Shown here: positions 20,737 through 38,740 of the stretch, piece by piece
Position numbering within the stretch: the stretch's first letter is position 1
Layout of the letters: the number at the start of each line of letters is the position of its first letter
Program-made: the position numbers and the translations under genes
Source: Sphacelaria rigidula
Taxonomy: Eukaryota
Assembly: GCA_964200075.2 (NCBI GenBank)
Contig: CAXNAA020000011.1
Span: 1-39,581 of the forward strand
Length of the DNA: 39,581 nt
Reading direction: 5' to 3'
Notes under the pieces: model-generated
Told to the model about the DNA's origin: nothing
The model's database searches: none
The model's input: the letters and a program-made list of their open reading frames with translations, nothing else

Positions 20737-23700
20737 ATGGTGGAAACGCAGGGTTTGCAACCCACCCGGACTCCGTGCAATAGCGTTGCTGGGAGCCTCT
20801 GGGTATTCTCCTGCCTCGGACATGCATGTGTGCGTGTTAGTGACGACGAGGAGGACCGAAAAGGCTTTGCGACGGGAATCAGGCTCAACGTTCCAGACAC
20901 TGTGCTATTTGAGGACGGCTCGCCCAAATTCTGGCTCTGTACTCATGACGGCAGATTGACAAGGCGCGATGTGTGCGAGCACGTAGGCTCGAAAGAGGGC
21001 GGAGTGCTACAGAAAAGGAACAGGGAACCTTCAATTAACGAAAGCATGAGACATGTAATAGAAGGCATGGCCCTTTTTTGGCACCGGAGCAACAGCAAGT
21101 CGACCTCGGGTACCTGCAGTCCCGTCTGCGTGGTACGCAATCTTATACGAACATTTGTATCCAGAAATACAAAGGCCGGACAGCCGGCGCCATAATGACG
21201 TCGTCTCTGTTTTCAAACTCCTTCACGAGTGGTATCAGCTATAGTACCCCAAATTCGAAATGGTCACGGCCTAAGTCGGGATTTTTCCCGCGTATACTCT
21301 TCGATGGATCTTGAATTTTCTAGCGTCAGTAGACTTTAGTGAAATAAATGGATCATCTTCACCTCCCAGTGCCTAAGTTAGTGCTAGTCGATGTTATCGG
21401 GTGATACGAGTAGATATCCCGTTCATCAGGAGGGTGCTATTGACCGTGGAATACAGTTATTCGGCTCCATTGCAATATGTAGATAGCATTAAAAGAAAAA
21501 AAACTTTAATTTCTTCACAAATATGATGGGGACAAGCTCGATCGACCAAATATACCGAAGAGTCAGAATCTGAGCTGAAACTTGGCTGGACCCCCGATGA
21601 CCGGCCAGTCCGTAAGTCACTTAATATTGATTACAGTACCGATGATTTTTTTTTCCTGGAATGTGGATCGTACACTAGTATCTTCAGGTCCCCATGATGA
21701 GCCATCCAATCTGCTTATCGCCGCTGGGCCGTTTTGTTTTCTCGTTACCGTAGGCATGGTACGTGGACGGTGCGTGCGAGCGGCTCGAGATACGTCAACT
21801 GAGCAAGCTCTCTGCTGACTTTACCTGGAGAAACCAACTCGCAGCAGTTCAGGGCCACGTGGTCCCCAAGCACGTGGAGTACGGTCTCTACTGCGCAAGC
21901 GAAGATGTAATAAGTTTCACTCGAGCAGAGGGATTTTTCACCTTAGGTGCCCCGACATCCTACCGACCAGCAACAACAGAAGCTATACCAGGTTCCTACC
22001 GAAGCATATGTTCCTCCCATCTATTTGTAGTGCCAACCAGCCGGCGGCATTGTTGACCTAACCATCTGGCGATGGTGCTCATTTCGGCTTATTTACCATG
22101 TCTACGCAACGCAGTCATTTTGATCATGCTTCCCTCTGACGAGATGCTTGTTGGACTCTGTGCTTGTTTTGCCAGGCTATCTTTGGCTCCGCAGGAAGCA
22201 TTCGATTCGGGGCAGCCACGGTTGGTTTGAACATGCTCACTCGGGCTATTGCAAAATGCCTCCAGATTGGGCATGGCATCATGTTGGCGTCAATGAGGGC
22301 GGTGTATGTCGTCGATTCTCAGGGAATATTGTGGTTTTCGCACGCGGACTCCATTCAGACACAAGTGTCCTTTGCTCATGACCAACCGGACAAAACTGGC
22401 AAGCATGTTGCACAAGGAGTCCCAGTCGCTGCTCGCTTGGTGGCAGCGGAATTCCAATACCTGCTGCAGCGTGCGATCAGCTCGGGCATACTTTGGGAAG
22501 AGTGTTTTTCACACTTCAAGTGCAGCTCTAGTGGGTACGTGATTGAGCAAGCGGAAATGCGGGGCACTCATAGGTAGATAGTGACTGGGGAAATTCCCTT
22601 GAAGGTCGAGCGCTTAGAGCTTGGTCTGCGACACCCCTTGGGCAAACCTTTGAGTTTGGTTCTGGTTGTAGCCTCGTGCTCATTCAAAGCACTTATCTTT
22701 GCGAGGTTCGATGGCACCTCTCGCACGTTGTCCTTGACTTGGTTAACCTTTGACCACCTGGAGGATCATCTGTCGGGTAGGCATCATTTTTACTTGAAAA
22801 AAAGACCCGGAGACCCAGATGATCCATCCCGGCGGTCAATGAGATACGTTTCCCGCCTACTCTATGCTCATCTGGCCAATGTTATACCCTCTTTCGATTC
22901 AACAGGTATGTTGCATGAATACCCATAATACCATTCGGCTAACGCCTGGAACTACAGTAAGAGTTGTCAGGTAAACTGCAAGCATTGCATACCCTGAACT
23001 GAAATCAACCGGCCATGTGAGAAAAATCGGTACCTTAGACGTGACGTTTTTCAAGGTTCGGACGAATCATCGTCGGTTCGAATAACTGAATCCACGATTT
23101 TCTAGACCTTTTCTCTAGGTCTGATTGCTCGAAAGAGAGGAAAAAAGGGCCCGCTAATGAAAAAAGTTTCGACGCAATTTTTGCGCCACTCCACGTGCCT
23201 GGGGTGCGCGTACCTGGGTTGCAACGCCGGAAACAGTCCAAGGATTGATTCGTACGGTACGAATCAAATCCAACAGTAAGATCAAGTAATTTCCAGACTA
23301 ATCATCAATTCGTCAGACACTTGAAGTTTTTGATGTAGCGACACAGCCGAGACAAACACAACCCCCGTCACGTAATAGAAGCCGGATAAGCTGGGCCGCG
23401 AATGTGCTGAAACCTGAACCACCTTCAATCCGCGCGTTCTTCAAACCGTGAGAAAATGGCAGTCCGTTTTTTCTTTCGAATGCTCTATATGACAGGGCTT
23501 ACTTGTCACGAGGCCTCAGGCAACGGACCGGTACGGGCTGTTTCTCGTAACAAGCCCTGGTGTTTTGTCATGCAGATGTTGCAGAAGGGACGGCAAACTT
23601 CTCCTTGGTAGTGATGCATCCGGTTTTCTTTCGTCACCACGAGCGAGCGGCGAATATCCCCAGTGCTCTTCCACCACCATATACTTGCAAGCCTGGCCTG

Positions 23701-26700
23701 AAGCGTATCTACTTCATGGTACGTCTGCAGACGTTCACGTAGTCTAAACGCTTCATACTGACAGTCGGTTTGCACACAGTGCAGAGAGTAACACGATGTT
23801 CCCTCATTGCTATTTGCGCAGATGCGTTGACGCACACAGTCTCCAAGATGGACTTGAAAATCTCGGTATTGGCATAACGACCGATGTCGCCCACGCGTTG
23901 GTGCGATTGGTGGGGAATGACACATCGGCCTCCTTTCGACTACGTGATCTAGCGTCGTTTTGCGCGAACTATGATTCCTCGAGTGGAAGGCTGCACGGAA
24001 AACTACCATCACCGATGAATTTGGCAACAGTCAATCCTCCAGACAATCCCCACGGAGCTGATTCGACGGAGCGGGTACCGAGTATTTTAGAGCGTTCGCC
24101 CGATGGCGTTGCCGATGAGGCCATTACCAGGGGTAGTGATCCCGACTTGACGAGAGTGACCACCCCCACTGATGCGGTCAGCAGTTGTGGGCGTGGGCAG
24201 AAGTTTTCACCGCGAAAAGGGGTGAAGAACCAAAGAGTACTGAAAACAGAGGATTCCACTCAAGAGGACGCACCACCGTTTGCCTGGTTTGAGGTCAGCA
24301 AGGCTCCACATCGGATATCTGGGCCTGCGGTCGCCGCTTTTGCACGTTCAAAGCAATCAAACATCTCAAAAACAAATGGTTGGGGTGACTTGCCGTGCTG
24401 GGTAAGAGAATCCTCGAAAATGGCCCTGCGTCAGCTGATGGGACGTCATATAAGGTGAGGCATACTGCATTACGAAGTCTCATGGGTGCCTGCGCAATCA
24501 ATTGTCAATTTTTCATGGGCAGAAAGAACCATAGAGCCTTGGGCGGAGAGATGAACGAAAACGAGTATGACTTGTTGCCGCTGTAGCACACTTCGAATAC
24601 CGGGATGTGTTGTGACGGTGGTTATACCGACCATTGATACTCTTTGAAGTTGCAAACTCGACTTACCGTGTGCTAATAAATTGTATTAAACAGATCCTTG
24701 AGGCAAAAGCGCTGCAGACACCCGGCGGACTGGGTGGGTGCATCAAAACGCGAGAAAAATCTGTCCGATTGTGACGCAAAAAAAACTGTTGCGCCATCAG
24801 ATGCCCAACTCGTCACCTCTCCGATCACTCTATCCTACCGAAAGCAAGGTGGGCATGAAAGCCCTCGGTCTTCAACCGGTCGACTTGACTTCCCCCAGCA
24901 CGAACGGATACAGCATAACCGTCGCACGGAAGTATTCCAAGATACCAAAGTTCATGTGGGAGGCGGCAATATTATGTCGTACCGCTGGATCACGCGCGCA
25001 ACAGCACGACCGGGGCATAATGGCTCCGTCCTTGAGGCTACCGTGGCTCTGAGTACATCTAGAGAAGCGATGGGGCTTGCCGTAAACAGGAACGAAGATT
25101 TTCTCCTCATCATTTTACCAGATTTGTTGATGACAATGGACTCTATGGAAAGTCGTCTTGGCGGCATACTGGAGCTGAATCCCCACGGAAGACTACTTTT
25201 GGTTAGTCACTACGTCGTGGCACCCGTAGGTGCATCTGCATCCCGTACCCTCAAGTATCAGAACGATAGAATAAAAAAAAGTACACATCACGGCAACGAT
25301 GAGTTTAACCAAATTTGCATAGAAGTGAAGACTTGTCGTGTGTGCTTTTCCCTCGAAATTATTCAGCCTTATGCTCATCTGCTGTCATGGGCGAACGTCA
25401 GCTGTTCATGAAATAGGCTGGCTAGCATCATATGTACGGGAAGCTACTCTGACAAGACCTTGACGTGTACGTCACGTCGACGCCCGCCGCAATGTTACTG
25501 CAGCTCTTCCGGTTAAGGCTCACGCCATCGCATCGAAACGATGTTTGGGCAGGTGGGTTCCCTGGGGTTGCCGGGAACCAAGTGGAACAGAGGAGAAGTT
25601 CTCGATGCTCAGCTGCAATCGCGAGGGTTGAGCACCTTGCTGCTGGAGCTTGTCCAGCGAGGAGAACTGCACATCGAACCCGACCTCTGCGTCGTCATGA
25701 TGGGTCTCGGATGTGGAGCGAATGCGCTTCTTCACTTTGCAGCCACAAAACCCCTCGACCCGGACCTCGTAGTTTTGTTAGATTCAACACGGTTCCTCGT
25801 AGTCATAAATCCACTCCCTCTTGCACCGACGAGTAGCACCGAGGCTCATCAGGTGAAGCGGTCTATCCAGACACTGAAAAGAGTACTAGAGAGAGGAAAA
25901 CACCACGAGCAGCTCCAAGCCTTGACGACAGCATTCTTTTCGGACGAGTTCATATCACAGGTCAGCTCTGGCTGCCATCTACACCTCCGCAGAAAAGTAG
26001 CAACGTCGATTTTGTGCACATGGCGCTCATCTGCTTACGTTGAAGAATTTCCTAGGGCCGTTCTACAAAAGCAGCATTTTGCCGAGCGAAGTGGGGTTCT
26101 CCTGCGGCTCACACCTCCATATCGTGATGCGTTGCTGTCGGCTTAACTCTCAGCCACAATTTTGGGTTGTTCAGGTTCTAGTAGTAAGTATACCTCTTCT
26201 CGATCGCAATGCTTCCTCCAGCATGGTCGCACGAGCGTGCTGAAAGAATTCTGGTCACAAAGGCGGGGATTGAACCTCCCACGAGAAAGGAGACCGGTGT
26301 CAGCCCCCAGTATACTGAGGGCAAGGGGTAGGCGCGAAAACAAGTCAAGAAATATGAAGGACCCAACGCGGCAGCCACTCGACGGGGGAGAAACAGTACA
26401 ATGCCTGGATGGTATCCTGCATGGGGTCAGCATTGGACCGCTGTGTGCAGCTGTTAACCTACCGATCCTTCTGATTGCATCAACAAACGATGCTTTGGAC
26501 TCGTCACCGACGGCTAAGGTAAGTAGTCGCCTGAAAACGATTTGCAATTGTAACCGCGGCATAACGAGCATGGCGTTTGTTGTGACTTGAGTAGTTACAA
26601 ATCCCCACGACTCGAAATCTTTGATACAGCTGTGCCCAGTACGAACCCAGAGTTTGCCGCGATGTATTAGGAACTGCGTGACCACCTGAGTTATTTTTCG

Positions 26701-29700
26701 AGTTCCCAAGCCTGAGGTTCCTTGCCACAACTCTTCCTTACTAGCGAGTAAGTGAAACGACTTAAGCGGTATATCGGCTTGTACACGTTGTAGATTCAAC
26801 TACACTAGAGCTACGTTTGGGTGTTCGAGTAAGTACACATCTTAGAATCATGCGTATGTCATACGCTATATTGTGCCGAGGTGAAAACCGGTGGACTAAA
26901 CGGGGAGAGTGACAACTTTAGCGACACGGCATATCTGCACAAATCGTCTTCTCACGAATCGAGCCACAAGGGTTCTACTTGAGACCTGGAGCCGTCTGCA
27001 TCCCTTCGCTTCTATCGCAGCACTTTCCCATTTCATTGGACGCCCAAGAAGTGAATTCCCTATTCGATCTGGTGAACGGCCAAAAGCGCCGCAGGGTCCT
27101 AGTCCTTCCTGTCTCGGCTGGGCGAGAAGTCTTGCAGGAGGATCCCAGTCGAATACTGCAAATCCTCCTCGAGGCAATCAACGCTGCCCAGGCAAAGTCG
27201 TTCGTTGTGTCAAGGAGGAATGGGAAGCATCCCAACGAGGAACCGACAAGCGAGAACATATGGGAACGCAATGAAACGAATTCCACCGATCGCGACGTCA
27301 TGAAAGAGTTACGGCCAGGTAGTTCCGAGAGTGGCAACGAACGACGGGTCTGCGTAACGTCGGACAACCCAAGCACTGCAAGTGACAGGGAAACGGATCA
27401 AGCTGCTCACAAAACCAGGGTTGTCCATGAAGATTCATCTGTTTCTGCGACTCACGCCGCCAGGGGCAAATCGCGGCGCGCACGCGAGTTCGATCTCCGA
27501 AAGGAGCGGGCGGCCGAGCGCAAAAGGAGAAACGAGCGTCTGAGGAGGCAAGACGAGATTGCGAACTTGAGGAAGGCCAAAAACCAGATGGCGGAGCGCG
27601 GCAACGAACAAGGCGAACTAGCTGTAATGCAGCGAGAAGATGACCGGAGTAGAGCTGCGGACAATTATCTGAGGTGAACGTCGACTTGTGTGTCTCGTTC
27701 GCTAGGACCGCATTAGTTCGAGTGTAGCGTCTGCATTTCCAGTCCCGTTTTGTGATTTGAGGCAACACGCTGACGATGGACTCGACTTGCCCGAGATAAA
27801 CCGACAGCAAACATTAACTTTGTGCACCTCTATTCTGACCCCGACTATTCCCGGTTGGTGCTTGGGTTCAACTAAGTACTTATTCTTTCGTCTGGGATTC
27901 GGGTTCGGTGGTGGCAGGCTATGGCTTCGGAAGGTACGGGTGACGGTAAAAACGAAATAAGTCGCAGTTGATATGTCTTCCGAGAGAGAGCACGAACTTC
28001 AGAAATGTTACACGTTTGAGGTAAGGAATTGTAGAGGCTAATGCAGCAGTCCGCCCTTCGTCAAGCGTTGTTGTGAACTTGGTCGGGCCTTCTGCTTCCT
28101 CTCACCGAGATGTCGCCCAAGACAAGAGGCGTTTATGGGCGAACATCATTTAATTGACGACAGGAAAAACACAAAAAATATACAGTTCACTGTCGAAAGA
28201 ACGAAGCACGTATGAGGAAGGGTTTGACCGAAACAGCTGCGAGGAATTAACGCTTTCGTGGCTCCACATTTCACCACTTGCATTCACTGGTAAGCTTTAC
28301 GTATAAGCAATCCGAAAATCTGAACTTAATCCAAAGGGCAAATTCCGCTCCGCAGCAAAAGTAGATCCCAAGGAACAGAAAACCTTCATTTCCACTGCAC
28401 TCATTAAGCTTTGCTTTCCTTCGACCCACACTCCCCACTTCCAAAGAGAACTCGAAGGATGGACCTTGAGTGTTGCAGAGGCAAAAGAGCGCGCATTGGA
28501 GCTAACGGCTACCAGGGACCTGGGAGAGCGAAAACTTGCAGAGGATGATGTAGCTCGCGAGCGGGCAGCCAATCATTTGCAAAGGGTAGAACTATTTCAG
28601 CGAAAAAAATTGGACATCCTCGCAAAATGCGAGGTTGATAGCAGCAACGAAGCATTTTTTTGCGGCAAGCATGCAAGCGCTGAGCTCGCGCGTACAACCT
28701 GCGAACAGTTGATGGAACAATTGCGTTCGATTATGCTGGGAATCGTCGACACTTTTAAAATGGAGCAACTTCGCCGAGAGCAGTTGACAACGTTTGAAAC
28801 GCAATACCGGAAGCTCGAGTCAGCGCTTGGCAAGGCGGAGCGACTTCGGCGCACATACGCACGGGGCCGCACAGCAGCTGACGTACTTGGTGAAATGAAT
28901 TCACAACAATCAATCGAGATAGAAGTGACTGTTGCGAGGCAACAGGTTCAGCTCAGCAGTTATCAGTCAGTCTTGAAAGAGAGGCAGGAAGTGTGGCGCA
29001 TGGTTGTTCATCATCTGCAGAACCTGAAAATCGCGTTGCGTAACAAGCAAGAAGAGGTACGGACTACTATCGACGAGATTCGGAAAGCGGCAGCTAGTCT
29101 GAAAAAAAAATCTGGGCGACTGAAGGCTAGAAACCTAAATTTGGTTGCGCTCAGGGCTAGCGTGGATTCGAAGGTAGCCAGAACAAGACTACGCAGACAG
29201 CGCTTGGAGCACGAACAATTGAGGGTTCAAGCAAACCCCGGGTCACTTTTCGACACGGACATCTGGCAAGAGGGGGTCATGCAACGGATAGTTACGGGTA
29301 CATTGGCCGAATACTTACAGGTACGACGCGGTATCTGTGTTTTTCAATAAGGCAATGGAATAAACGAGAGTGCGGACAATTGCTTGGTCTCGAGTCTCCA
29401 TGCACGTTGCCCGTTGTCAAAATACGGAAGGGTTGGAATGCGTGATTTACTTCAGTTGCTACGGTGCTGCTGACGTGCAGGTTGAACTCGAGACCACACG
29501 TTGTTTTATCGAGGAGAGCGAGCAACACATGAAACGCATCGACGGAACACTCGAGGTCGATGCTGTGGCCGCTCAGGAGATCGGTTTGAAATCCCAAAGA
29601 CTAACGCAGATTGTACAAGCTACGGAAGTAAAACTGGACAGAGCGGCCGCAACGACGATTACGCAGCAGCTACAAGCTTCATTAAATGCAGAAGACGAGA

Positions 29701-32700
29701 TGAAAACAATCGCCGTGACACCAACACAAGATCGGATGAAGGGCAACATGGCGGACGAGGTGAGCAATTACCATGCTGTAGAACAATGTTTAATCGCGTT
29801 TTGACGTAATTTGGAATTGCACGATTTCTTCTTCATATTTCGCCTTCCCCGCCTTCTTTTGGCGAGTGGCGAGTGTTTTCGATTGCTTACCTCCTCTTCG
29901 GGTATGCCCATCTTGCGACCACGGCTGGATTCGTACAAATACAGTAGCGGATCAAGTACTGTTCATGTGGGACAATCCATTTTTTTGGTATCAAGAGTGC
30001 CTTGCCCCGCCCCCCTTCCAGCAAGTGGAGGTGCGAAAGAAGTGCGCAACTCTCAGCATACCTGATATTATACTGTTCAGATTCGCCGCAAGCCCAGCCA
30101 CGAACGGACTGTGGAGGAGAAGCGGTGGGTCGCGTTGGATATTCTTCTGAACGAGGAGCTGTACAACTCCTTATCTGCTGTCGAGCAAGAGGAGCTTCAG
30201 CTTAACGACGAATACAAAACACAGCTTCGAGCAGAGAATGTGGCCAGGATTCTGGAGCTTCCTCACGAGATACAGCTGAGCTTGCCACATCTTGCTTCAC
30301 AGGCAGAGATCGAGGCACATGGACTATTGATGAAATACACGCACGAACATGGGGATGCAGAATTCTCAAAGGCAGATGAAGGTAACCAAAGCGTGGAGAA
30401 CGTAGACACAGTGAAGACACCGTGGCAACATGAATGTTCAGCGCCCAAGCAGAAGAAGATCGTTGTGTATGAATCGATGTCCGATGTTGGCATGCAGACA
30501 ACGCACTGCCCTCAGAACTACCACGCGGTAGTGCGCATCGAAGAACGTGAGGTATACTGCTCCGCTGGCAACGTACTGGCACCCCAGCAGTCGCGCGCTC
30601 ACAGCTTCAGCATCAGAGACACGGATCCACTTTATGCTACGGACTTGACGGTGCGTGCGTGGCGTCTGAAGACGTTTCCACGGGAACACCGCAAACATAT
30701 CTGCAGCGTGAAGCACCCGAAACATTGCTTCGACGTTCGTTCGTGTTCACTAGGCTCCACGGTATGCCAGAAACACCGCAAATATACTAACGGATTGCAG
30801 ATGTACTTGGCATGTTCACCGACGATATCTGGTCTCATCAGACGTTGATTAAATTACGTCTGTAATTTGCTGCTGTCTGCCGTTGTTGCAGTCAGATTAG
30901 TCCCTACCGAACGAACGTGAATTGCCAAATACGTGCTTAAACAGGTTGTTGTCAAATTCAAAGGCTGTATGGATGTGCGGGGCTTCGGCAAGGGGAGAGT
31001 CAGTGCTGTTCTTATCCGAACGTCCACCGATGAGGGAAGCGTTCAAATTTCTGCAAAGGAGTGCGTAGGATACGCCCCCCATGGCAAGCAAACGTTGAAT
31101 ACTGGCGATCAGTTTCATCAAACGCCCGGGGCGATCGTAATTCATCACCGTCCAAGGCGTGTCTCAATAGCTTCCGGCACGTTCGATGTGTTGGTGAACG
31201 CTCTAAGTTTGACGGAATACTCTGTGCTGGTCATGGCCGGACAATGCGAACTGTGCACGAGCTTGATCGATAAACGGCTGCAGGAAGCGGAGCGTCTGAA
31301 GGTAAATATTCGCGTTTTTATTGGATTCCGTACTCGAATTGGCGGAATCGTCAGTACACATAGGCTGCAAGTCTCTCGCCAACACAGCGCTCGGTGGCAT
31401 CAACATCCGTGCTGGGCTGAAGGTAGTATTGCGAGCGAAATAGAGGACACCATTGTATACGTTCAAGGTATGTCGCCTTTAGAGTCCAGTTGACCCCGCA
31501 AAAGTGTGCGATCGGTCTCAGGTCAGCATGGGGTTGCGCCTTTAATACTGCAAATGGTAATAATTGCCGCGCTCCGGTGGTCGAATGGTACAATTGACTA
31601 CAGCAGGTGGGAATAGACGCGGGGTCGATACCCGTCAAATACGTCTAGTCTGACTTTTCTCCCGGAGGAGTCTGATTTCCGTCGTTGAAAACCTGAGGAC
31701 GTGAGTACAAAAAAAAATTGTTCGGATAAGTTTATCACACGACAACTGACGCAGTGCGGTAGTGCCGATCCAATCTGCGATACCAAAATGTAAGGCGTCT
31801 CCTCGGAGAGAGTGTGGGTTGTTAGAAGTGAGACAAAAAAACCCATCACAGTCGTGAGCGGGTCTAAAAATGGTGCTACAGCAGATCCGACACTATAACA
31901 TACGACTGGTAAATCCATTAGGTCCATGTTCTAACGCCCTACCCCCCCTGCCGTTGCGGTCTGCTTAGCAACCCCGCAGACCGCTCAGGTTGGTATCGTT
32001 GTCAGCATGGGGGATTCTCTGTAAAACATGTCCACACCCCATATATGCATCTTGATACTAGAGGGCTGATGAGACCGAAGTACGCATAACTTGGGCGCCA
32101 GACGCCTACTCTTCGATGTCGGTCGTGGTGTGCTTCAAGTTAGGGATACTGAAGTTTGATTGATTTGGCAGTGTCGCTTGCCACTCCACCTGTACCTCCC
32201 CACACGAGTCACTGCTACAGGTTCGCCTGACTAATCTCGAGGGTGAGCTGAGCGACACCTGGGAGAGCGTGCGGCTACGAGAACGTCAGTACGATGTGTG
32301 CAAAACATTAATTGCAGAAGCGGAGAAAGAATGCGAACGTTGCCAAGAAGCTATCGACGACATATGCACAGATCTTCTCACATACGACGAAGTGCCACTT
32401 ATGTCCACAGCCGGTCAAGGAGAAGCGAAGGTCGGGGAGAATAGTAACGTAAAGTCAGGAGCAAGTCATTTGGGCTCCACGACGAGTTTATCGGCCAGAT
32501 CAACAAGGTCAAGCGGTGATACTCCGTCGGATATGTCTGAAGCAGAAAGAGAAGAGACTTGGAACGAGGCTGCTGCTTTCGAGCTTGAGCACACCCACTG
32601 GGGGCGTATTTTTACAACTCGATGTCAGGAGAAGGTCAGCGTGAAGAAAGCCCTGGACCGGCTGATGAAGCTTCGTAGAGACCTCACCGCAGAGAAGGCT

Positions 32701-35700
32701 GGCATCGAGGCCAGACTCCTCCACATTGCAGAGGAGGTCCCGCACGCCGTCGCAACTGTGCAAGGTCTCGACGCGGCCACTAAGGTTGCAGTGCAGCTCA
32801 GCAAAGCTATTGGCGCGAGTGATACTTTTCAGCGTTCTCAGATGCTCGGTGCCGTCGCAGACCTGGCAACGTCACTTGTTACGCCGGCAGAGACAATTCG
32901 GAAAGCGTTCGAAAGAGAGGGATGGCACTCACTAACGTTGGAGGAACAACAGTGGGTCACGGTGGATCAAAGCATGTGTCCCGAGAAGTACTCTTGGCTT
33001 CGGCAGCAACAGCAGGAAGAAGATGAGAGAAGGACGAGAAAGGGCGGCAAACAGAGAAAGAAAACTCGCAAGAATCCTGCTATTGATCAATGTAGGTTTC
33101 ATAGAGACGAGCTGCAGCGTATCCTTGCAGAGCCTGTCGAGAACCTGAATCGCAGAGAGATGCACGTGCGTAAGCTTGTGAACAAATTCCACGATGACCC
33201 TCAGCTTATTCAGAACGCTGGCACGCAAGAGGCGGCTTGCCGTGACGTCAGCACATTAGCACAAAGAACACGGAGGAAGACCAGAGCTGAACTCACCGTT
33301 GACGAGAAGGAATGGATTTCGCTGGATAAGATCCTGAACCCGCAGGTAAGTTCAATTCTTTACCATCACTTCATGCCGTGAGGATATCATTTTTTCTATT
33401 CGTCGCTTCGAGACGGGCACAAAAGTTTCCAAATGTAGCCATTAGAGTGGCATTTCACGCTCCCACTCGCGCTTTGATGAAGGCTGCTGGACGAGCTGCA
33501 CCCGAACTAACGTGCGACAACTGACGATCCTGAACGAAGGTATGGGAAGGTGAGGTGGACGATACTCTCCGGACTGGAAACGGCGACTGTGAATTGACTC
33601 TCCAAGAGGAGCAGGTGACGGTAGTTGCTCTCGTGAGGATTTTGTGCTTCTCGTTTCTACGGCGCTTCATCACCGATTACGAGTCATATCCTGAAAATAA
33701 ATAAACCCTTCTCTCCGCGACGTGCAGATGTACAGTCGTGGAGCTGTGGACATTCGTTCTGATCTCGTGCAACCTGCCGGCCGCGTTTCATTACACAAAT
33801 GCTCACGTTGTAATTTCTTCCTGCGCTACGCCAGGAACCACGGCGATGTCGGCTCTCTCGAAATGAACTTCTACGAATATGGAAATGTTGCAGAGGTTCT
33901 CCAGAAGCAACTGCCGACGGAAGACGAATCTTCAGTCTCCTAACAACGTTTAACGGACCGTACCAGGTAGAGAAGCAGTAAGAACCAGCAGTGCCTTCAT
34001 AGAGAGAAAACTTAATACTCATTAACCAAGCATTTTTTACCAGTCAAACGCCACTTGAAAAAATAGGTTTATCATAATGCTCTGGGTACGAACAACTACT
34101 TCATCGTCGGTTGTGGGTTGTGTATGCAAAAGGAGCAAGGAGTTAACCGCATCCTTCGTCGCATCCACACCAGGCGGAGAGGCGGACCAAGGACACCAAA
34201 GCCTGGAGGGGGATTCAAATGGGGAAAACCGGTGCAAGTCTTTATACAGATGTCGACAAGCGTGTACGAGAGTTACAGCTGGAATTGGATCGAGTATCTC
34301 ACAGCAACAACCCACAAATGAATAGCTCTGCGCTGCGTGTCGTGCCACAGCGATACCCGAAAGGCACATTGCGACTAGAGCTGGAGCGGCAGCTCGAACT
34401 TTTGCTCCGGGAGCAGGTAAGGTCATTAACATCGGTGACTTCCATAAGTAACAACCATACGGTTTTTGCCCGACTTACTCTGTGATATCGGTGCTCATCG
34501 AATGCCAGGTGCAGCAACGCGAGCGAAAAAACAGCTACCTTGTCGAGGATTGCAGTAGCAGTGAGGACGAGCAGAATGATGGCCCTGCTGACGAACAAAT
34601 TCTACGAATCACAAAGGCGGAGAGGAGGAAGATGCGCCGATTGAAGCGCCGAGAAAGTCGTGGTGGTGTTAATATCTTCGCCGCTCGTAAACGTGTACTG
34701 CTAGAAGCGAGCAGGACAGCACTTCAGAAGGAGAACGCGAGGAAAGTAGCTCAACTTGGGCCTGGCGGATGCCAAGCGTGCATGACAAATCCCTGCAGCC
34801 ACACCCCTGTGCTCAATGTTGAGGTAAACACTATTGGAGTGTCACATGCGTTTTATGAAGAAGATGCGACCTGTCGTGCCTTGGTACCTCGCTGTGTTTC
34901 GTTGTGTACATCGTACGAGAATAACTCAAGTAAAGCGCTGTACATGTAATCAATCCTGCTCGACATGTCGCTTCCGGCAGTTGCACAGAAGACAATGCAG
35001 AATAGCGTGTTCACCATCTTGTGTTAATTTTAATTGTACACCGATGTGCACTTTCGTCTTGTGAGTGTTGCTGTGTCTCCGTAATTCGCACAGGGTACCA
35101 ATGCTCGCTTGAGACGGGTGGCTGACGAGCTCTACTACGCAAGGATACACACCGAGGATGTAATTGAAAGCACTGTGCCATTGTCCACAACAAGGAACGG
35201 CAAAACAGTTTTTCGTCGAACTGAACTCATCGAGGAGCTGAGCTCGGAGCTCAAGTGCTTGAGGTTCAAGTTGAAACTCCACCTCATCGACCACGAGCTC
35301 CACGAAGCCAACCAGACCACCAAAGAGAACATCGAGAGCGTCGCCTTGCACGGCTATCGTACGTTCTTGTGGACAAAAGACGCAATAATTGCCCTTGAAC
35401 GAGAGCACAATAGACTTGTAGCCCGACTCGTGGCAATTGAGATTACCGACGACATACTAGAGTGGATGCTGGAAGGATGGCACTTCGGAGAGCGTCAATC
35501 CAGATACGAGGCGGTGGGCTACGTGCCTAGCATAAGAAAAGACGGGTTCGTCAAACCTGGTGTAGACACGAAGGTAATTGCTCCGGTCAAATAAGAAGCG
35601 GTGAGAAATGTCTTTCGTCGATCCATTGCCCATCCCTTCATGCTAAAGCTTCTCGACATATCGCGGTTGCTCAAATGCCAGATAAAGGACCAACCAGACG

Positions 35701-36639
35701 TGGAACAAGAGATCACACTCCAGGAGCAAAAAGAAGACAAGGCAAGCAAATTCACTCTTCCTCCGGGAATTGCAACCAGCAGCTGGAACAAGAGCGCCGA
35801 GCGTGTTGTAAAACCCGGTGGTGTACATGATGAGGAGATTAGCTTTTTGGAGAGAACACTGCGTTTTGGTCTGTTTTGCGTGGCGGTGATGTACTTCAGA
35901 GCGAAATGGCTTCTCGCTCGACAGAGGCAAGGGGTGGCTAGCTTCAAACTTGGTTGGACGATTGATGTCGGCGTGCCCGCGAGGGCTCAGCGTAGAGCTG
36001 CTACTGTCCTCAGTGTCAACAGCATGCAAGCCGGGTACCAACGCGTCAAGGTGAGAGATACCCTTATTATTACAGTACAACAATAGTGCCGGTTCAACGC
36101 ATGGTGCCCGAATTTGTGTAGCATATGTGATAATCAATCGACACAACGCGCCAAGTGACTGTGTTTCGGGAAAATATCCCTCACGAAACTCCCGTCGACG
36201 CTATGCGGTCGCAAAAATGTCCTTGTTGCAGGTACGAAAGGAGAAGGAGCAAGCGGAAGTCTTGGCGGACTTCGCGGGATTTCTGGCGGTAGAACGAAGA
36301 GAAGTAGAGGCTACACAGCGTATACAGCGAATGTATCGCGGACATATCGGGCGCAAAGCAGCCCAAAGATGGGCTGCAAAACGAGCCGAGTACAACGCCA
36401 CGAATGCACTTATGGTGTCAGCTGCTGTATCTTTACAACGACTGATGAGAGGCAGCTGGGGAAGAAGCCGCGCGAAGACTGTCCGAGCTGGAATAGCTAG
36501 GTGGATAGCGCACTTGTTTGACGACGAAGCCCGGGACTTCGAGGCCGAAATATTGATGAATAACAAAGTCGAGGCCCTAAAGCGAGGACTTAGAGAATTG
36601 GGTGCAGGCAACGGCGACGATGGCGACTCAGACACATAG
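20737..36639 (+). CDS. Giant uncharacterised multidomain protein, about 2,877 aa, 20 exons: degenerate EF-hand pair, inactive alpha/beta-hydrolase (NDRG-like) domain, coiled coils, internal repeats, two IQ motifs
   Basis: Exons with GT-AG junctions and consistent phase total 8,634 nt in one open frame: 20737-21132, 21754-21906, 22176-22534, 23822-24454, 24694-25201, 25553-25960, 26222-26518, 27021-27673, 28447-29320, 29481-29759, 30081-30650, 30945-31301, 32221-33345, 33540-33614, 33835-33966, 34174-34416, 34509-34823, 35094-35573, 35682-36050, 36232-36639 (TAG). IQ motifs are IQRMYRGHIGRK and LQRLMRGSWGRS. The small exons 14-15 and the exon 8 acceptor are the least certain. Confidence 0.85.
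21352..21702 (+). repeat. Dispersed repeat of about 350 bp, copy 2, in intron 1 of the giant gene
   Basis: Same blocks in the same order as 10246-10594. Confidence 0.85.
22743..22842. mobile_element. Hairpin element of about 95 bp, possibly a piggyBac-type MITE relic
   Basis: TTAA precedes CCTTTGACCACCTGGAGGATCATCTG, which is inverted as CAGATGATCCATCCCGGCGGTCAA. The right-hand TTAA is not preserved. Confidence 0.4.
23052..23271 (+). mobile_element. Orphan left end of the CACGGTTCGGACGAAT TIR family
   Basis: CAAGGTTCGGACGAATC lies at 23052. A palindrome TTGATTCGTAC-G-GTACGAATCAA lies at 23245-23267, and its arm GATTGATTCGTAC also occurs at 16720-16732 near the large element's right TIR. Confidence 0.5.
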
Positions 36640-36845
36640 CATTTCTGGACGCCGACAGCGACGGTGAAGGCCGACGACAGCGAACAGTTTAAAAGAGAGT
36701 GCCATGGTACTTTAACGCGAGGGAGTTTCGTATAATCGATCACTGTATGTATCTCATTTGTTGGGACGATGGTTATCCCCATACATGACGTATTTGAGAA
36801 AAGTCACGATATTTGCCGTCAGGGATACATCTGGCTGCCACCGCA

Positions 36846-38740
36846 TTACCGCTCCTCCACTTGAAACCCTGCTGAGTTCTCGTTGAAAGTCTCTTCAACT
36901 TCGAATCCCTTCTGGAAACGCACCGCCTCAGCCACCACACCTTCCACTGCAGCATGAGGCACTTTCGTTCGGTCTTCGCAAGTCGCGTCCGCCAAATCTC
37001 TGACGGGGGGAGTGCAATGTTACGTTGAGAATCGCAAGTGAGATCTACAGCAATACATGAGAACACGTCCGGCGATGGCGGGTCCGTGTATGACACGGTA
37101 TTTCTCCGCGAAAATTCCACAGCAGGCACGCTTAGGAGGGGTTAGGATTGGGTGTGTGGAAGCCAGTCTCCCGCCAACCTTTTGTGGGTGCAGTTACAAT
37201 GAGGCGAAGCAGCTTGTTTGGTTTTAACCCGCCGCTGTACGCCGTGACGGTTGCAGAGCGCGGTTTATTGGTGCCACAGGACGTCGTGCCTTCGGAAGAA
37301 AGGTGTCGGATAAAAGTTGGGTTTTGATATACGCTCTTAACCCCTTCCCTTCCTCGAGACAAGGGATAAACCCATCTCTATCCCGTTCCACGCCTTGCAT
37401 TTTGGTTTCGCGGAGTGGGTCAGCACTCGCGCAACACCCCGCAGTGCGTCAGCTCTCGTCAAACAAACTCAGCCAACTACTTTTCGGCTACTCACGTCCT
37501 CATGCCTTCGACGGCGGAAATCAAATAGTGTACATCGAACAAAAAAAAACCGCACATCCGGCGGGAATCTTACCCACAGTCTCTCCACCCTAGTGGTGAC
37601 AGTCAGACAACTACAGTAGACCACCGGGGCGCGAGAAAAGGCCCTGAAATCACGAAATTATCTAATTCACATAACGTGGGACCGAACTTCGGCTCATCGT
37701 ACGTGAGGCCAATTTCCGTTAAGCATCCCACAACCAAGTAGGTTTCAACACCGCAGGAAAAACAGTCGGTTCTTGAAATCCATGCGGAAATCAGGTGACT
37801 GGGTAGGTCTTTCTGAGTACCCCGGTTATATTCCCCCTTCTCTTCCCAGTTTCCCGCCTTTTCAACTTTTGGGGATGACCTCAAGCCGAAATAAGATTGA
37901 CTCTCCTTGGGCATACCTTATTTTTGTGGCGACCCGAGTTGCATGTCGCGTGGCTTCCTTGATCAAGTCATCACCCTGAGATCGAGCGACGCGTTTTTGG
38001 GCGAACTTCACAAGGTTAGTTAAGATCGAATTCATCGCTTGTAGCGTGGTATAGCCGGCGTGAAGTTCGCAGTGACTCTCTTACCTTCGTATCGGCATGC
38101 TGAAATTTTATTTCCCTTTGCCACAATGAAATAGCCTGCAGCATTCCGCGAGTATCGGCTACCTCTCTCTCGAGATCAGTCCTGTGGATTTGTGTCTCAA
38201 GCTCGTTTTCAGAATCCGGAGAATCCCCCAACTTGACCCATGAGTGAGCTGCACGGTACCAGGGGTGCCGGGCTTCGAAGCATTCTGCGCAGTAGAAACC
38301 ACGCCCACCTTTGAACCTTGAACAACTGTAGCACTGAATGGTCGCCTTCGTGTGGCCGCAGCACACTCCAATTGTGCAGATGAGTGGTGAAGGCTGGAAA
38401 AGCGCGCGACGAGCAAACGCACGATTCTCAGGGTTGTCATGGTCGTCGCGGTTTTCCCGCCTTCCTTCCTCCTCTTTCAATACATTTTTCATGCACGTTT
38501 CCACTCCTGTCGTTTATACTCATGCGTCCCTTACACTGTACAAAATGTGCATCGCCGTGTATCATCGCTAGCGCTGGGTCACATGCACTACAGGTGCATG
38601 CGCAATCACGAAACCGTACGTACCACATCTGCTCTAAACTGCAGTTATGAGCGCGTTGTTCTTGGGGTTGCTCCAGTTGATTTTCGGCACGGCGGAGTGG
38701 GTATCCAAAGTGAAAAAGTCTCAACACACTGAGATCGGCC
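36846..38740 (-). CDS. Partial multi-exon gene encoding a B-box-type zinc finger followed by a helical/coiled segment; probably extends beyond the window
   Basis: Exon 38506-38085 (AG acceptor, GT donor) encodes CTIGVCCGHTKATIQCYSCSRFKGGRGFYCAECFEARHPWYRAAHSW, a B-box-like Cys/His pattern. The next exon, 37975-37917, encodes GDDLIKEATRHATRVATKI. A candidate last exon lies near 37000-36846. Other exon boundaries are unresolved, so the start and end are approximate. Confidence 0.6.

Follow-up and report, generated by a model that had tools for sequence, protein, structure and literature searches.

A strongly diverged alpha/beta-hydrolase-fold domain, probably a non-catalytic binding module, in a giant scaffold-like protein of Sphacelaria rigidula

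Can a catalytically dead hydrolase domain be recognised in a gene whose sequence matches no hydrolase family, and what would such a domain do inside a giant protein? The question arises from a stretch of 39,581 nucleotides of Sphacelaria rigidula (contig CAXNAA020000011.1 of assembly GCA_964200075.2; hereafter the window), in which a preliminary description, made from the letters alone, had placed an NDRG-like alpha/beta-hydrolase domain without catalytic residues at 25100..27185, within an EF-hand and IQ protein of 2,900 amino acids (aa). Our analysis leads to the reading that the forward strand from 24694 to 27673 holds four exons for a diverged hydrolase-fold domain, which would serve as a non-catalytic binding module in a scaffold of about 2,650 aa. 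We assign this reading a probability of roughly 0.78.

The fold of a domain split over four exons

The six motifs of the preliminary description were all recovered, in the order and frames it gave, on the exons that it had numbered 5 to 8, and these join by GT-AG introns in phase 0 throughout (..25201/GTTAGT, AG/25553-25960/GTCAGC, AG/26222-26518/GTAAGT, AG/27021-...). The open-frame list agrees that the domain cannot be seen in any single open reading frame. Four RNA runs (X1-X4) cover the locus; the library type is a guess, though the contigs carry spliced GT..AG junctions, and all statements on junctions rest on the 15 that are listed of the 20 counted across 22500-37500. Exon 5 (24694..25201, + strand) encodes a basic linker, the β1-β2 hairpin (VHVGGGNIMSYRW), strand β3 (LLIILPDL), helix αA and the start of β4 (RLLL). 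Since this hairpin sits upstream, beginning near 24947, the domain starts before 25100; the motifs of the span first proposed stand, and its start does not. The acceptor of exon 5 (24692-24693) is predicted from the frame and an AG, its donor reads GTTAGT, no listed RNA junction falls at its own borders, and it aligns to the relatives P0011, P0015, P0016, P0017 and P0023. Exon 6 (25553..25960, +), whose acceptor is used in an X1 contig, contributes the rest of β4 (VGSLGLPG), αB, β5, the elbow GLGCG, αC, β6 (FLVVINP) and the start of the cap, its secondary structure being mapped from the homologue model described below. Exon 7 (26222..26518, +; GT-AG, phase 0) adds cap helices, a lineage-specific basic insertion, β7 (LPILLIAS) and the Asp of the acid position. 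Exon 8 (27021..27673, +) carries β8 (RVLVLPV), the Arg of the His position in SAGREVLQE, αF to about 27190 and a charged linker into the rod that follows, and its donor is joined by 27673>28447 in X1, X3 and X4 contigs.

Sequence profiles did not name this domain. A Pfam scan of the four exon translations (E up to 10) gave no relevant family, exon 6 compared with PDB sequences found a chance match only (E 1), and no Abhydrolase-type Pfam profile rose above its cut-off in the window exons or in the homologues scanned, where the matches stayed below threshold (Hydrolase_4, E 0.088 in P0018; Abhydrolase_2, E 0.27 in P0025). A first profile, A1, contained full-length rows that carried the EF-hand and drew calmodulin; it was replaced by A2, an alignment of the domain only. 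Searched against PDB sequences with E up to 10, A2 found no hydrolase and no NDRG chain, its matches being designed helical proteins at E 0.056 or worse.

The assignment of the fold comes from a predicted structure. Residues 85-438 of the homologue P0025 were modelled with AlphaFold from a 26-row alignment in which the window's exons formed separate rows, giving a pLDDT of 87.9 and a pTM of 0.87. Foldseek matched this model to esterases, haloperoxidases and an enol-lactonase (E 2.9e-14, probability 1.00), and VIA-align superposed it on 8qzu with Z 27.4 and an rmsd of 2.4 Å over 261 aligned residues; in the best 50 rows of each of two VIA-align listings, all with Z of at least 22.1, everything save designed fusion constructs is an alpha/beta hydrolase. 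ESM Atlas features pointed to AB-hydrolase-1 clusters with a score of 0.98, and with the abhydrolase clusters excluded the scores were 0.87 or lower and are taken as leads only. The model possesses the central, mostly parallel β-sheet flanked by helices that defines the superfamily and can be superposed on solved members, and the six motifs map to its core strands β3-β8. Assigned from this homologue model through collinear alignment, the window domain is a predicted, strongly diverged alpha/beta-hydrolase fold; the check by AlphaFold and Foldseek suggested in the preliminary description has returned a hydrolase fold, on P0025, carried over by the alignment.

An exhaustive HMMER search with exon 6 (E up to 0.001) returned 17 proteins, from which P0009, P0012 and P0014 were excluded, their matches being short and in several stretches and their Pfam content consisting of TPR repeats or of assorted families that have nothing in common. 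The others form two groups, close relatives that are single-exon open frames (P0001 with 90% identity; P0002-P0008 and P0010 with 43-55%) and longer proteins (P0011, P0013, P0015, P0016 and P0017). With the P0016 domain as query, 12 proteins were recovered, 769-2,055 aa long and P0016 among them, and exon 8 has three relatives, P0029, P0030 and P0031, with 82%, 52% and 42% identity. The order of the motifs is not due to chance, since the spliced domain can be aligned collinearly with independent proteins (P0016, E 1e-29; P0018, E 1e-27 over query residues 48-537), and the junctions between exons 6 and 7 and between exons 7 and 8 are free of gaps in the alignment to homologues. The collinearity extends over the full model, reaching from residue 47 to 1276 with P0018 and up to residue 2033 with P0021, which is 32% identical to model residues 1515-2033 (E 2e-64). 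Full-length matches of this kind indicate a conserved family of giant proteins, of which, as judged from these alignments, the gene is a member and for which there is no Pfam model.

Residues at the catalytic positions and the NDRG comparison

In the P0025 model the nucleophile position is the lone residue between strand 139-144 and helix 146-157 (β5 and αC), which is the middle Gly in G-F-G-I-G; the Asp in H-S-T-E-D, after β7, is the acid and the His in K-A-G-H-E, after β8, the base. The window reads as first described at all three places, with G-L-G-C-G at 25703-25717, GAT for Asp at 26489-26491 and CGA for Arg at 27123-27125, so that a Gly elbow, a retained Asp and an Arg at the His position are confirmed. 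The nucleophile codon (25709-25711, +) specifies Gly, as in 23 of the 24 sequences that cover it, the exception being P0017, with Ser, which ends ahead of the acid and His positions. At the acid position (26489-26491, +) the Asp of the window recurs in 12 of 13 covering sequences, P0019 having Asn. The His position (27123-27125, +) is Arg in all four members of the window's clade (the window and P0029-P0031, in the motif AGRE) and His in the ten other informative sequences, a count that leaves out P0024 and P0026, which break off just before it. None of the sequences compared holds Ser, Asp and His together, the combination that, according to the preliminary description, would make the loss specific to one lineage; its call for orthologues is thus answered by a Gly kept in 23 of 24 relatives and an Arg kept throughout the window's clade.

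Given that the nucleophile position is Gly in nearly all relatives, loss of the nucleophile is ancestral to the family, and on the sequences compared the change from His to Arg is specific to the window's clade and fixed in it. The turn after β3 is Pro-Asp in the window and most members, in place of the His-Gly usual in alpha/beta hydrolases. Among the residues by which the superfamily is recognised, the window thus has none of Ser, Cys or Asp at the elbow; the acid is kept but the His position is Arg. Since Gly stands at the nucleophile, Arg at the base position, and the His-Gly turn is missing, serine-hydrolase chemistry is excluded, and we infer from the identity of these residues that the window domain would be unable to perform it.

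Loss of this kind has precedents. As described in PMC3069448, NDRG2 (2XMQ) has an alpha/beta-hydrolase fold with Gly132, Gly279 and Ala251 at the Ser, His and Asp positions and a blocked pocket, filled by the conserved His186 of helix α7; its nearest structures are RsbQ (Z 25.5) and 1ZOI (Z 25.0), and its authors consider that it may be non-enzymatic. PMC7022630 describes NDRG3 as similar to NDRG2, NDRG proteins as regarded as non-enzymatic, and neuroligins and gliotactin as hydrolase-fold pseudoenzymes that serve as binding modules.

The preliminary description had proposed kinship with NDRG proteins, and a true NDRG/Ndr member by common descent, working as those proteins do, would account for several of our results. 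The Gly of the G-x-G-x-G elbow corresponds to NDRG2 Gly132, the His is absent in the window's clade, and the P0025 model has 1zoi (Z 25.6) and RsbQ 1wom (Z 22.6) among its structural neighbours, the two reported as nearest to NDRG2 in PMC3069448. Against this, the Ndr profile (PF03096) matched none of the four window exons or 10 full-length homologues with E up to 10, in a search whose HMMER filters drop most matches above about 0.1, nor any of 14 proteins at E up to 0.1. The A2 search of the PDB, as said, found no NDRG chain; that none appears among the listed Foldseek and VIA-align rows (lowest listed Z 22.1) we count neither for nor against, since a family may lie outside the rows listed. 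Further, the NDRG pseudo-triad reads Gly-Gly-Ala/Ser in the order nucleophile, His and acid position, whereas the window has Gly-Arg-Asp and the wider family Gly-His-Asp, so that the first position alone agrees. NDRG proteins are also small and single-domain, and the window domain has an EF-hand pair on one side and about 1,700 aa of rod on the other. Membership by descent is for these reasons improbable; with no Ndr profile match and two of the pseudo-triad positions different, what survives of the proposed kinship is a likeness, and we call the domain NDRG-like by analogy, its membership in NDRG/Ndr having no profile support.

The structural matches include bacterial and archaeal esterases, cofactor-free haloperoxidases and C-C hydrolases (8qzu XhpG, 5h3h EaEST, 1va4 PFE, 1a8s, 1zoi and 2xua). 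These share with the modelled domain the β-sheet core, the cap helices and the strand-turn-helix elbow (Z 25-27, rmsd 2.4-2.9 Å, about 260 of about 270 target residues), but differ from it in sequence (12-17% identity and no profile match), in having Ser where it has Gly, in the lack of His in the window's clade, and in that the window domain forms part of a giant eukaryotic protein with several domains. Neuroligins and gliotactin, extracellular adhesion proteins of the cholinesterase-like branch, resemble it, in a comparison by description only, in having lost triad residues while keeping the fold as an interaction module.

The gene, its transcripts and the flanking modules

The locus is a gene of 17 exons at about 22140-36642 on the forward strand, in eukaryotic DNA with a G+C content of about 50% over the window. 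Joining the exons through 12 introns fixed by RNA and four predicted GT-AG introns yields an uninterrupted open frame, 2,681 codons long and with its only stop at the end; with translation starting at the first Met codons of exon 1, the product would have about 2,650 aa, less than the 2,900 first given. The 15 listed junctions, from X1-X4 contigs, fix the 12 introns (22534>23822, 27673>28447, 29320>29481, 29759>30081, 30650>30945, 31301>32221, 33345>33835, 33966>34174, 34416>34509, 34823>35094, 35573>35682 and 36050>36232) together with two exon-skipping forms. The predicted introns (24455-24693, 25202-25552, 25961-26221 and 26519-27020) follow from frame, splice consensus and homology, and none has a junction among those listed. 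The Arg exon is joined to the rod by 27673>28447, and the exon-6 acceptor 25553 is joined to the EF-hand exon in one X1 contig (24454>25553); the EF-hand, hydrolase and rod parts therefore share transcripts, and the possibility raised in the preliminary description that the exons belong to separate ones is not what the contigs show. Coverage by X4 is absent at 26508-27008, which we do not use as evidence.

The upstream coding exon (22140..22534, +), whose 5' limit is undefined, probably contains the start Met and encodes a helix and loop 1 of an EF-hand-like pair (..CFSHFKCSSSG); it is supported by 22534>23822 in X1, X2 and X3 contigs, lies in frame in the model and has BLASTP matches to the EF-hand regions of P0016, P0019 and P0027. 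The next exon (23822..24454, +), with RNA junctions at 23822 and 24454, encodes the remaining half of the pair (LQDGLENLGIGITTDV..) together with a linker. In the family this region is an EF-hand pair: the A1 profile over the N-terminal region matches calmodulin (E 1.1e-12) and P0015 has EF-hand_7 at 6.5e-16. The pieces in the window, where the pair is split by an intron and each was scanned alone, match no Pfam EF-hand at E up to 0.5, and loop 1 (KCSSSGCVDAHS) is without acidic residues at loop positions 1 and 12, where a canonical EF-hand loop usually has them. The EF-hand pair of the preliminary description thus holds for the family region; the window's own pair looks degenerate in its sequence, and calcium binding by the window protein is doubtful.

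Downstream of the hydrolase domain, the first rod exon (28447..29320, +; RNA junctions at both ends) was modelled with AlphaFold (mf62a3adc98c0, pLDDT 86.5) as three long helices (2-68, 75-147 and 152-262, of 67, 73 and 111 residues) followed by two strands (267-274 and 277-282), which form a hairpin (DTDIWQEGVMQRIV) conserved in the family. The rod of about 1,700 aa is predicted as long helices, so that the fusion first described, a hydrolase domain joined to an EF-hand-type N-terminal region and to coiled coils, finds its counterpart in the long helical rod. Ten more exons in the same frame (29481..36642, +), whose nine internal introns and the intron before 29481 are all RNA-supported and whose frame stays open to the stop, include the region conserved in P0021 and end with IQ-like motifs and the stop codon. 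One match to IQ (PF00612) was found in the last exon (E 0.0014), at 18.7 bits, below the Pfam cut-off of 20.3, and a second IQ-like stretch there is seen by eye only; of the two IQ motifs claimed, one has become a sub-threshold match and the other remains a visual reading. No protein combining EF-hand, hydrolase fold, coiled coil and IQ was found described in full-text searches outside the subscription literature, which accords with the earlier remark that the architecture was not recognised.

Several further features of the gene were observed. The region at about 30580-33345 (residues 1515-2033) is the best-conserved part outside the hydrolase domain, aligning over 525 residues to P0021; it belongs to no Pfam family and contains a β-rich-looking stretch (VVKFKGCMDVRGFG..). 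Phase 0 is found in 13 of the 16 model introns of 22140-36642, including every one from 29321 onward. One X2 contig has the junction 33966>34509, which omits the 243-base exon 34174-34416 and keeps the frame; this exon is present in the other three runs. Within the intron 22535-23821, the four runs reach a contig depth of 342-687 in the bin 23001-23501, where neighbouring bins have about 4-18, and many contigs diverge at 23138-23267, with loose ends at 23216, 23238 and 23267. This segment has the appearance of a transcribed repeat with dispersed copies; neither Rfam nor tRNA scans matched anything in the window, 23138-23267 included. Finally, 38016-38513 on the reverse strand is a 165-aa open frame with a Cys/His-rich stretch (C..C-x2-C...C-x2-C..H), which may be a small exon for a zinc finger, belonging to a neighbouring gene on that strand.

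Weighing the reading, and what the domain may do

Five observations count against a non-catalytic domain made as part of the giant protein. The fold was predicted on a homologue that is about 25-29% identical to the window's domain and not on the window's own sequence. The three introns within the hydrolase region have no RNA junction among those listed, and unspliced contigs span introns there (X1 25662-27673, X2 25502-26526). The sole listed junction at the exon-6 acceptor, 24454>25553 in one X1 contig, bypasses exon 5 (24694-25201) and is out of frame. Lastly, the strictness of Asp and His in the wider family hints at a working site, and general-base chemistry by His and Asp is possible in those relatives.

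The observations on splicing could also be understood if the gene were decaying or mis-spliced, with exon 5 skipped or introns retained and no full-length domain protein made. The form that omits exon 5 would fit, as its frame shift meets a stop 25 codons on, at 25631, and so would introns 5-7, which are unspliced in contigs. Yet a gene in decay would be very unlikely to keep 2,681 codons free of stops, and exons 6 and 8 are 42-90% identical in relatives, with equal residue states. Moreover, introns that are proven to be removed are likewise covered by unspliced contigs in such runs (X1 27644-28474, X4 31115-32053), and for this reason unspliced cover carries little weight in either direction. 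Because its shifted frame runs into a stop, the 24454>25553 form is probably an unproductive isoform. We consider decay very improbable, the least likely of the explanations weighed here.

The strictness of Asp and His bears on another explanation, that the domain has remained an enzyme, though one of non-canonical chemistry, for instance acid/base general-base catalysis without a covalent nucleophile, a chemistry that cofactor-free oxygenases of the alpha/beta fold do use. The Asp is shared by 12 of 13 sequences and the His by all ten informative ones outside the window's clade, which is unusually strict for a dead site. On the other hand, Arg replaces His in all four members of the window's clade, 23 of 24 sequences have Gly in place of the nucleophile, Pro-Asp follows β3, and the setting in a rod protein of 2,650 aa better suits a structural role. 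We give little credence to retained catalysis.

We therefore return to the non-catalytic module. In this reading the domain lies near the N-terminus of the protein, preceded by the EF-hand-type pair and followed by a very long rod of helices with IQ-like motifs at its end, and its task would be to hold either a small ligand or a protein partner. That Asp-His, or Asp-Arg, is so strictly kept suggests that the old active-site region is still used, either as a structural salt bridge or as a site for a ligand or partner. Whereas the exon structure (in part through RNA), the homology, the fold of a homologue, the residue states and the helical rod are results, inactivity, a role in binding or as a scaffold, and any control by calcium or calmodulin are inferences at this stage; a flagellar or cytoskeletal role is a guess. 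A more far-reaching proposal is that the family is an undescribed class of giant calcium-linked rod proteins, in which the nucleophile was lost at the family root and the Asp-His (Asp-Arg) pair remained functional as the receptor site of a phosphorylated partner or of a small ligand, anionic or lipid, by which a cytoskeletal or flagellar scaffold would be coupled to ligand sensing. We hold this to be unlikely, if less so than kinship with NDRG, retained catalysis or decay.

The kind of protein is known, as is the idea of a dead hydrolase; what is new is a family that is invisible to profiles. Hydrolase-fold pseudoenzymes such as NDRG proteins and neuroligins form a small, informative group, to which the window adds a family missed by sequence profiles. 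Since the domain becomes visible only after four exons are spliced and a structure is predicted, automatic pipelines will label such genes 'hypothetical'. Within the family, the subfamilies with Gly-Asp-His and with Gly-Asp-Arg constitute a natural experiment on the job of the residual site.

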